From NCBI RefSeq assembly GCF_003334255.1, contig NZ_QOWU01000012.1: a stretch of DNA of 64,000 nt, one strand, 5' to 3'. The DNA is from Escherichia coli. Its GTDB lineage: Bacteria; Pseudomonadota; Gammaproteobacteria; Enterobacterales; Enterobacteriaceae. The stretch's first letter is position 1, and each line of letters opens with the position of its first letter. This document shows positions 19,378 to 20,310 of the stretch, in pieces. The position numbers were made by a program, and so were the translations under genes. The notes below the pieces were generated by a model. The model saw only the letters and a program-made list of their open reading frames with translations, searched no databases and was not told the origin of the DNA.

Positions 19378-19392
19378 AAAATATAATGACCA
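19378..19392. promoter_or_regulatory. Candidate PuuR operator (AAAATATAATGACCA) in the puuA-puuD divergent region
   Basis: 14/15 match to a second copy at 19550-19564; resembles the PuuR box as I recall it. Confidence 0.45.
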
Positions 19393-19545
19393 CCATTCGA
19401 ATCTGTATGCAAACTAAATGTTTGTCAAATATTAAATTGAGTTTGCAAAAATGAAAACCCACTGCTAGATTGAAAAAATATTGAACATAAAGGTCATTTA
19501 AAGCGCAGTAATGGCGATAATTTAGTCCACTTTGTGAGATTGAGC

Positions 19546-20310
19546 ATGGAAAATATAATGAACAATCCGGTTATCGGTGTCGTAATGTGCAGGAACAGGC
19601 TTAAGGGTCATGCGACCCAGACTCTGCAAGAAAAGTACCTGAATGCCATCATCCATGCAGGCGGCTTGCCTATTGCGCTACCACATGCGCTGGCGGAACC
19701 GTCATTACTTGAACAACTTTTGCCGAAACTCGATGGCATTTATCTTCCTGGTAGTCCCAGCAATGTGCAGCCGCACCTATATGGTGAAAACGGCGATGAG
19801 CCTGACGCCGATCCCGGGCGTGATCTTCTGAGCATGGCGATAATTAATGCCGCACTCGAAAGGCGCATCCCCATTTTCGCCATCTGCCGGGGTTTACAAG
19901 AACTGGTGGTGGCAACCGGTGGTTCGTTGCATCGCAAGCTGTGCGAACAGCCTGAATTGCTGGAACATCGGGAAGATCCCGAACTGCCGGTGGAACAGCA
20001 ATATGCACCGTCGCATGAAGTTCAGGTTGAAGAGGGGGGATTACTGTCTGCGTTGTTACCTGAATGTAGCAACTTTTGGGTAAACTCTCTACATGGACAA
20101 GGGGCGAAGGTCGTTAGCCCACGGTTGCGTGTTGAAGCTCGCTCGCCGGATGGCTTAGTTGAGGCGGTTAGCGTCATCAATCATCCTTTTGCGCTGGGCG
20201 TACAGTGGCACCCGGAATGGAACAGTAGCGAGTACGCGCTTTCGCGTATATTGTTCGAGGGCTTTATCACCGCTTGTCAGCACCATATCGCTGAAAAACA
20301 GCGACTCTGA
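19546..20310 (+). CDS. puuD: Gamma-glutamyl-GABA hydrolase PuuD
   Basis: 254-aa product (MENIMNNPVIGVV...); class-I glutamine amidotransferase-like. Confidence 0.9.
   Translation: MENIMNNPVIGVVMCRNRLKGHATQTLQEKYLNAIIHAGGLPIALPHALAEPSLLEQLLPKLDGIYLPGSPSNVQPHLYGENGDEPDADPGRDLLSMAIINAALERRIPIFAICRGLQELVVATGGSLHRKLCEQPELLEHREDPELPVEQQYAPSHEVQVEEGGLLSALLPECSNFWVNSLHGQGAKVVSPRLRVEARSPDGLVEAVSVINHPFALGVQWHPEWNSSEYALSRILFEGFITACQHHIAEKQRL
19550..19564. promoter_or_regulatory. Candidate PuuR operator (AAAATATAATGAACA) overlapping the first codons of puuD
   Basis: Second copy of the 15-mer found at 19378-19392. Confidence 0.45.

Follow-up and report, generated by a model that had tools for sequence, protein, structure and literature searches.

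Likely PuuR operators between puuA and puuD of Escherichia coli, one of them overlapping the puuD start codon

The PuuR operators of the puuA-puuD intergenic region of Escherichia coli K-12 were reportedly described by Nemoto et al. in 2012 (J Bacteriol 194:3437). PMC9951944, citing Nemoto 2012, places four PuuR DNA-binding motifs in this spacer, and it has been reported that PuuR binds to it, including the puuA and puuD promoter regions, and dissociates upon addition of putrescine (PMC9951944, PMC7901475). XRE-cupin regulators bind palindromes as dimers (PMC7901475). The Pseudomonas repressors PauR, PsdR, and ErfA have the same domain architecture as PuuR and, like it, are local repressors of adjoining catabolic genes that act as dimers on palindromes and are released by a metabolite of the pathway; however, their motifs differ, and a multi-site array with an operator at the start codon is not described for them (PMC7901475). 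The region analyzed here is the same locus as in K-12; it has four motifs in its spacer, is followed by the same regulator gene, and presents nothing different in kind. What we add to the K-12 operators is a model of the site as an 18-bp quasi-palindrome, the conserved spacing of the sites, their placement with respect to the puuD start and a constraint on puuD codons 2-6.

We have analyzed a 64-kb stretch of E. coli DNA (the window), in which the first-pass annotation, made from the sequence alone, had noticed repeats in what it considered the divergent control region of puuA and puuD. Its gene assignments were right, as the RefSeq annotation of the K-12 equivalent and the list of open reading frames identify the surroundings of the repeats as the E. 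coli puuP-puuA / puuD-puuR-puuC cluster, with the following genes next to the repeats:

17916 to 19334, minus strand: puuA, glutamate-putrescine ligase (ATG at 19334; RefSeq, K-12 equivalent).
19546 to 20310, plus strand: puuD, gamma-glutamyl-GABA hydrolase (ATG at 19546-19548; RefSeq, K-12 equivalent).
20337 to 20894, plus strand: puuR, the repressor, with an XRE-type HTH and a cupin domain (RefSeq, K-12 equivalent).

Like puuA, puuP is on the minus strand, and puuC, puuB, and puuE are on the plus strand with puuD and puuR. The puuA-puuD spacer has 211 bp (19335-19545) and an A+T content of 66%; the repeats are located in the control region of the puu genes in a genome that carries puuR, which lies 790 bp downstream, and Pfam domains PF01381 and PF07883 are recorded on PuuR orthologues. 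Only one base in 1 kb distinguishes the window from K-12 MG1655, and a 1-kb query around the repeats matched 4372 of the 5426 complete E. coli genomes. The other 1054 genomes (about one fifth) gave no megablast match to the puuA-puuD segment (window 19000-20000), and the puu cluster is therefore not universal in E. coli.

The two 15-mers that had been singled out, AAAATATAATGACCA (19378-19392) and AAAATATAATGAACA (19550-19564), are indeed on the same strand and share 14 of 15 positions, as can be read directly from the sequence. A degenerate third copy had also been proposed, and it is present as AAAAAATATTGAACA at 19473-19487, where 13 of 15 positions match in an ungapped alignment, although the 14-letter transcription given for it was one A short. 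The 15-mer would correspond to the reported 15-bp PuuR recognition sequence; a full-text literature search that combined PuuR with the whole 15-mer or a portion of it gave no match. The 15-mer has no mismatch in the downstream copy, one in the upstream copy and two in the copy between them (sites E, A, and C below), and these were the only three matches with up to two mismatches when both strands of the 64-kb window were scanned, all of them on one strand and within 187 bp. When up to three mismatches were allowed, eight matches appeared in the window against 2.1 expected, a number reached in none of 100 shuffles. Furthermore, when the AT-rich region 19335-19570 was shuffled 2000 times with its dinucleotide composition preserved, only eight shuffles contained a non-overlapping direct pair of 15-mers with at least 14/15 identity (P ~0.004), and the number of further copies expected at 13/15 or better was 0.007. 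The repeated 15-mers exceed chance.

The description of these sequences as a 15-bp direct repeat stood only in part. Comparison of 59 orthologous loci (see below) showed that an 18-bp quasi-palindrome of the TGG-N12-CCA type is a better description of the unit, and that there is a fourth site, D, which had been missed:

19375 to 19392: probable PuuR operator A, 18-mer CGTAAAATATAATGACCA, containing the 15-mer at 19378-19392; its core ATATAATG is invariant and the block conserved in the 59 loci.
19470 to 19487: probable PuuR operator C, 18-mer TTGAAAAAATATTGAACA, containing the 15-mer at 19473-19487; AAATATTGAAC is kept in nearly all of the 59 loci.
19512 to 19529: candidate fourth PuuR operator D, 18-mer TGGCGATAATTTAGTCCA; the loci share the conserved block TGGCAATAATTTAGTCCA.
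19547 to 19564: probable PuuR operator E, 18-mer TGGAAAATATAATGAACA, containing the 15-mer at 19550-19564; it overlaps the puuD ATG (19546-48) and codons 2-7.

On U00096.2 (window coordinate + 1,339,598), sites A, C, D, and E correspond to 1358973-90, 1359068-85, 1359110-27, and 1359145-62. In the four 18-mers, outer triplets of the form T/C-G-G/T and C/A-C-A/G flank an A/T core. According to a matrix derived from the four sites themselves, which makes their scores partly circular, site E is the best in the window (21.1 on the plus strand and 19.2 on the minus strand), site C scores 20.3 and 15.3 on the two strands, site A 18.8 on the plus strand and 17.9 on the minus strand, and site D, with 15.4, is weaker and also has the outer TGG...CCA symmetry. 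The near-equal scores on the opposite strand indicate that the sites are quasi-palindromes, with a dyad symmetry, although imperfect, of the kind recognized by a dimeric HTH repressor of the XRE-cupin type. Their appearance as direct repeats in E. coli is only due to a drift of the two half-sites of A and E in the same direction.

Site D would be bound by PuuR as well. A second candidate for the fourth site, the minus-strand stretch 19419-19437 (ATTTAATATTTGACA), was rejected as the primary candidate since only its TTTGACA half resembles the motif; the stretch also falls among the mapped ArcA repeats and on the predicted puuA -35 element (both described below). The fourth PuuR site of the literature could alternatively be this TTTGACA-containing minus-strand stretch (~19419-19437). 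The matrix scan of the window detected no comparable site upstream of puuP or puuC, and Rfam gave no match in 19200-20400. A sequence scoring 15.4, the same as site D, is found at 12999-13016 (CGTTAACAATAATGACCA); by its position it should be intragenic, inside the sap operon, and it is probably a chance match.

A scan for PuuR in one genome per species yielded 80 loci, 59 of which have the divergent puuA / puuD-puuR arrangement and allowed an alignment between the two start codons. Sites A, C, D, and E are conserved in these 59 loci, from Escherichia to Serratia, Erwinia, and Pantoea, and form a phylogenetic footprint that accompanies the PuuR orthologues. The spacer contains five conserved blocks: site A, the ArcA region, CTGCTAGATTGAGAAAATATTGAACG (which holds the extended -10 element and site C), TTGGCAATAATTTAGTCCA, and the puuD start, with a Shine-Dalgarno sequence followed by ATGG(G/A)(C/A)AATATA(T/A)T(T/G)NACA. 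The spacing is conserved too, as sites A and C are 95 bp apart in 53 of 59 loci, sites C and D 41-42 bp and sites D and E 34-35 bp. The same layout is present in Zobellella, a member of the Aeromonadales whose PuuR is 69% identical, and in a second Pantoea lineage, and an equivalent of site D is found in Serratia paralogous loci, Zobellella, and Pantoea.

Some Serratia genomes carry a second puu locus in which puuD is missing and puuA faces puuR directly (loci L058, L064, and similar). In these puuD-less loci the 18-mer of site E is retained with its spacing, as the sequence TGGGCAATATATTTTCCA, a nearly perfect palindrome, is located 77 bp from site C and ~124 nt upstream of puuR. A short remnant frame, MGNIFS..., is found in L058, L064, and similar loci between operator E and puuR (~3870-4000); its ATG or GTG forms part of the operator, and the frame may represent either a leader peptide or a puuD that has decayed.

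Functional data from the literature are consistent with the regulator being PuuR. The full-length reporter fragments of PMC9951944 extend, according to the primers, to window position 19583 in the puuD direction and to 19570 in the puuA direction, so that both include the site on the puuD start. Its 'full-length' puuD fragment corresponds to window 19335-19583, which reaches 12 codons into puuD and contains A, C, D, and E, and the 'short' fragment to 19403-19545, with C and D only. In Corynebacterium, with PuuR as the sole E. coli factor, the former was repressed 36-fold and the latter 6.9-fold (PMC9951944), a comparison in a heterologous host in which A and E are removed together and site E is not isolated. 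The suggestion that the repeats fit a PuuR operator is supported by the four motifs reported in the spacer, the repression of the reporters, and the footprints in 59 PuuR-encoding loci. All these data make it very likely that the repeats are operators of the putrescine-responsive PuuR, encoded two genes downstream, and PuuR would contact each of the individual sites. The operator set is real, ordinary, and already known, having reportedly been described in 2012.

The placement of the sites can be compared with the transcription signals of the spacer:

19407 to 19449, plus strand: ArcA binding region with four direct repeats, ATGCAAACTAAATGTTTGTCAAATGTTAAATTGAGTTTGCAAA (U00096.2 1359005-1359047; PMC3798270 supplementary tables).
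19443 to 19477, plus strand: puuD promoter, -35 TTGCAA (19443-48), extended -10 TGcTAGATT (19463-71), transcription start 19477; hexamers assigned by eye.
19400 to 19428, minus strand: predicted puuA promoter, -35 TTGACA (19428-19423), -10 CAGATT (19405-19400), from the sequence.

The ArcA repeats are at -70 to -28 of the puuDR transcription start (PMC3798270 Table S6), which sets the puuD start at 19477, inside site C. Of the 59 loci, 52 contain TGCTAGATT in the puuD promoter, whose -35 and -10 elements keep the same spacing in all 59. No puuA transcription start is on record in PMC3798270; from the predicted promoter, whose -35 element (TGTCAA on the plus strand) is conserved in 43 of 59 loci, the puuA transcript would start near 19393, at the edge of operator A.

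It could be argued that the repeats are promoter elements rather than repressor sites, or that they arose by chance in an AT-rich spacer. A perfect TATAAT is present in the E. coli sites A and E, TTGACA appears in some of the orthologous copies, and a consensus scan of this 66% A+T spacer does give a promoter-like TTGTGA-16-TATAAT at 19532-19559. We have rejected this tool-reported promoter (19532-59), as transcription from it, with its hexamer at 19554-59, would begin inside puuD; the recorded puuD start at 19477 is served by TTGCAA and TGcTAGATT instead, and by neither TATAAT. Moreover, in most genera site E reads ATATATTT, which lacks TATAAT and is equally conserved, and chance is rejected by the shuffle tests, so that we consider this explanation very improbable.

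A second possibility is that the sites belong to ArcA, FNR, or a nucleoid protein. ArcA directly represses both puuA and puuDR (PMC3798270), and FNR and ArcA sites have been described in the puuA-puuD spacer (PMC9397018). However, the mapped ArcA repeats (19407-19449) are based on a different word, TGTTA, at 11-bp intervals, and they are located between A and C, where the conserved block corresponds to the ArcA region and contains no PuuR site. Furthermore, PuuR alone reproduces the repression of spacer fragments in Corynebacterium, and the motif accompanies puuR even where puuD has been lost. Attribution of the sites to one of these other regulators is even less credible than their being promoter elements. 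As ArcA binds between A and C, over both -35 elements, the fifth conserved block of the spacer is explained without PuuR.

Within the ArcA region, the window has an A at 19431, where K-12 and the 58 other loci have a G, changing TGTTA to TATTA. This position is in the strongest ArcA direct repeat (DR3, 11.7 bits in PMC3798270), and the exact 40-mer with the A is present in 48 of 5426 complete E. coli genomes, including B/BL21-type strains, C43(DE3), and strain C. The A at 19431 could weaken the anaerobic ArcA repression of puu in those lineages.

Returning to the four sites as PuuR operators, a simple model can be proposed in which four imperfect 18-bp palindromes keep a fixed register over the divergent control region of puuA and puuD. 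When putrescine is low, PuuR dimers would occupy the sites, and putrescine would release them. Site A would be at the predicted start of the puuA transcript and the puuD transcription start falls within site C (-8 to +11), so that occupation of A and C could block both promoters directly, a placement that suggests a repressor excluding or trapping RNA polymerase. Within the puuD leader, site D occupies +36 to +53; site E, at +71 to +88, falls on the start codon of puuD. Repression would be strengthened by the outer and downstream sites, most likely through cooperative binding of neighboring or looped dimers, and site E might also be a roadblock to the elongating polymerase. The five-fold loss of repression without A and E, together with the rigid spacing, points to a probable cooperative occupancy of the array. 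The center distances between C and E (76-77 bp) and between D and E (34-35 bp) are not whole helical turns, which does not favor a simple in-phase loop.

Auxiliary operators located downstream of the promoter, in coding sequence, and cooperating with a promoter-proximal operator are found in other systems, such as lac O2 in lacZ and gal OI in galE. By analogy, site E may be regarded as a secondary operator of this kind, but only ~77 bp separate it from the primary site and it extends over the initiation codon itself, and looping or tetramerization of PuuR is hypothetical.

Site E overlaps the beginning of puuD as had been indicated, since its 15-mer spans codon 2 base 2 to codon 7 base 1 (E N I M N N), and the expectation that operator function would constrain the N-terminal codons was supported by the absence of synonymous change in codons 3-6. 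The N-terminus of PuuD is not invariant, as 21 variants (MENIMNN, MENIMYK, MGNIFDK, MVDIFDK, MGNIFNR, and others) were found in 59 distinct sequences. In contrast, codons 3-6 show zero synonymous diversity in these 59 diverged sequences despite their amino acid changes. AAT and GAT are found at codon 3 but never AAC or GAC; ATA, which makes up 11% of the Ile codons elsewhere in the gene, is used at codon 4 in 59/59; codon 5 is either TTT or ATG, and codon 6 is NAC and never NAT. From codon 8 on, the synonymous pair difference is ~0.5, with a median of 0.45 for the rest of the gene, and synonymous variation is present in the first codons of puuA, used as a control. The outcome was the same when the test was performed ungapped and on a codon alignment. 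In Rahnella, PuuD retains MGNIF, followed by an insertion of 10 residues.

Since site E covers the ATG and codons 2-6 of puuD, these bases would be fixed by operator function. The constraint, as the comparison supports, includes the first G of codon 2 and the ATG itself, which is part of the operator's left arm. The N-terminal pentapeptide of PuuD (MENIM or MGNIF) would then be essentially what the operator happens to encode. It is likely that PuuD owes its first five residues to the PuuR site, as an evolutionary by-product, and that changes at 2-6 are tolerated only if they preserve the operator; according to the same reading, and with the same degree of confidence, the operator at ~+71 to +88 has been fixed relative to the promoter across the Enterobacterales and at least one member of the Aeromonadales.

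The only serious rival for the codon constraint is selection linked to translation, in which codons 2-6 would be held by the requirements of initiation (an A/T-rich, unstructured 5' end or a ramp of rare codons) and the likeness to the upstream sites would be secondary. In its favor, A or T occupies most of the constrained third positions (AAT, ATA, TTT), synonymous diversity is also somewhat reduced in puuA codons 2-7 (0.0-0.3), and the puuD-less Serratia loci keep a Shine-Dalgarno sequence, an ATG or GTG and a short frame at or beside the same start, so that a translation-linked constraint may contribute there. However, codon 6 is always NAC and never NAT, which is the opposite of a preference for A/T, and the amino acids vary freely, but only along paths that preserve the 18-mer. 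In addition, the same word is found at three non-coding positions with fixed spacing, and in Serratia L064 the frame is shifted relative to the site while the 18-mer is intact. We therefore consider it improbable that translation initiation holds these codons, and favor the PuuR operator as the origin of the constraint.

If the operator does dictate the start of puuD, nature would here provide a clean instance of a transcription-factor site that prevails over codon choice as well as over protein sequence, and it could be used for measuring how operator strength is traded against coding. The impact on annotation is small because the PuuR operators of the region were reportedly described in 2012, and the dual use of the puuD start is a modest new detail, tidy and testable, but no surprise. 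It provides a testable example of a regulatory site that would, through a long span of evolution, constrain a start codon together with the five codons that follow, and it is relevant to the recoding of gene 5' ends and to PuuR-based putrescine sensors, as fragments that end at the ATG lose site E.

Finally, two internal islands of puuD, codons 75-93 (19768-19824) and 105-112 (19858-19881), show essentially no synonymous variation in the 59 orthologues (gene median 0.45). They are mutually complementary, and RNAalifold predicts a 20-pair interrupted helix between 19781-19803 and 19861-19883, as well as a small hairpin at 19806-19820. In 33 sequences 100% of the cells of this helix are paired, with only GC to GU changes and no compensatory ones, and the z-score for the single sequence reaches only -1.9. 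The more distant Rahnella-type PuuD does not preserve the helix. These islands may correspond to a functional RNA structure within the puuD-puuR mRNA. Regions of very low synonymous diversity that resemble the puuD islands are also present in puuA, at codons ~126-134 and 153-160 (~18855-18959, minus strand; 57-59 loci).
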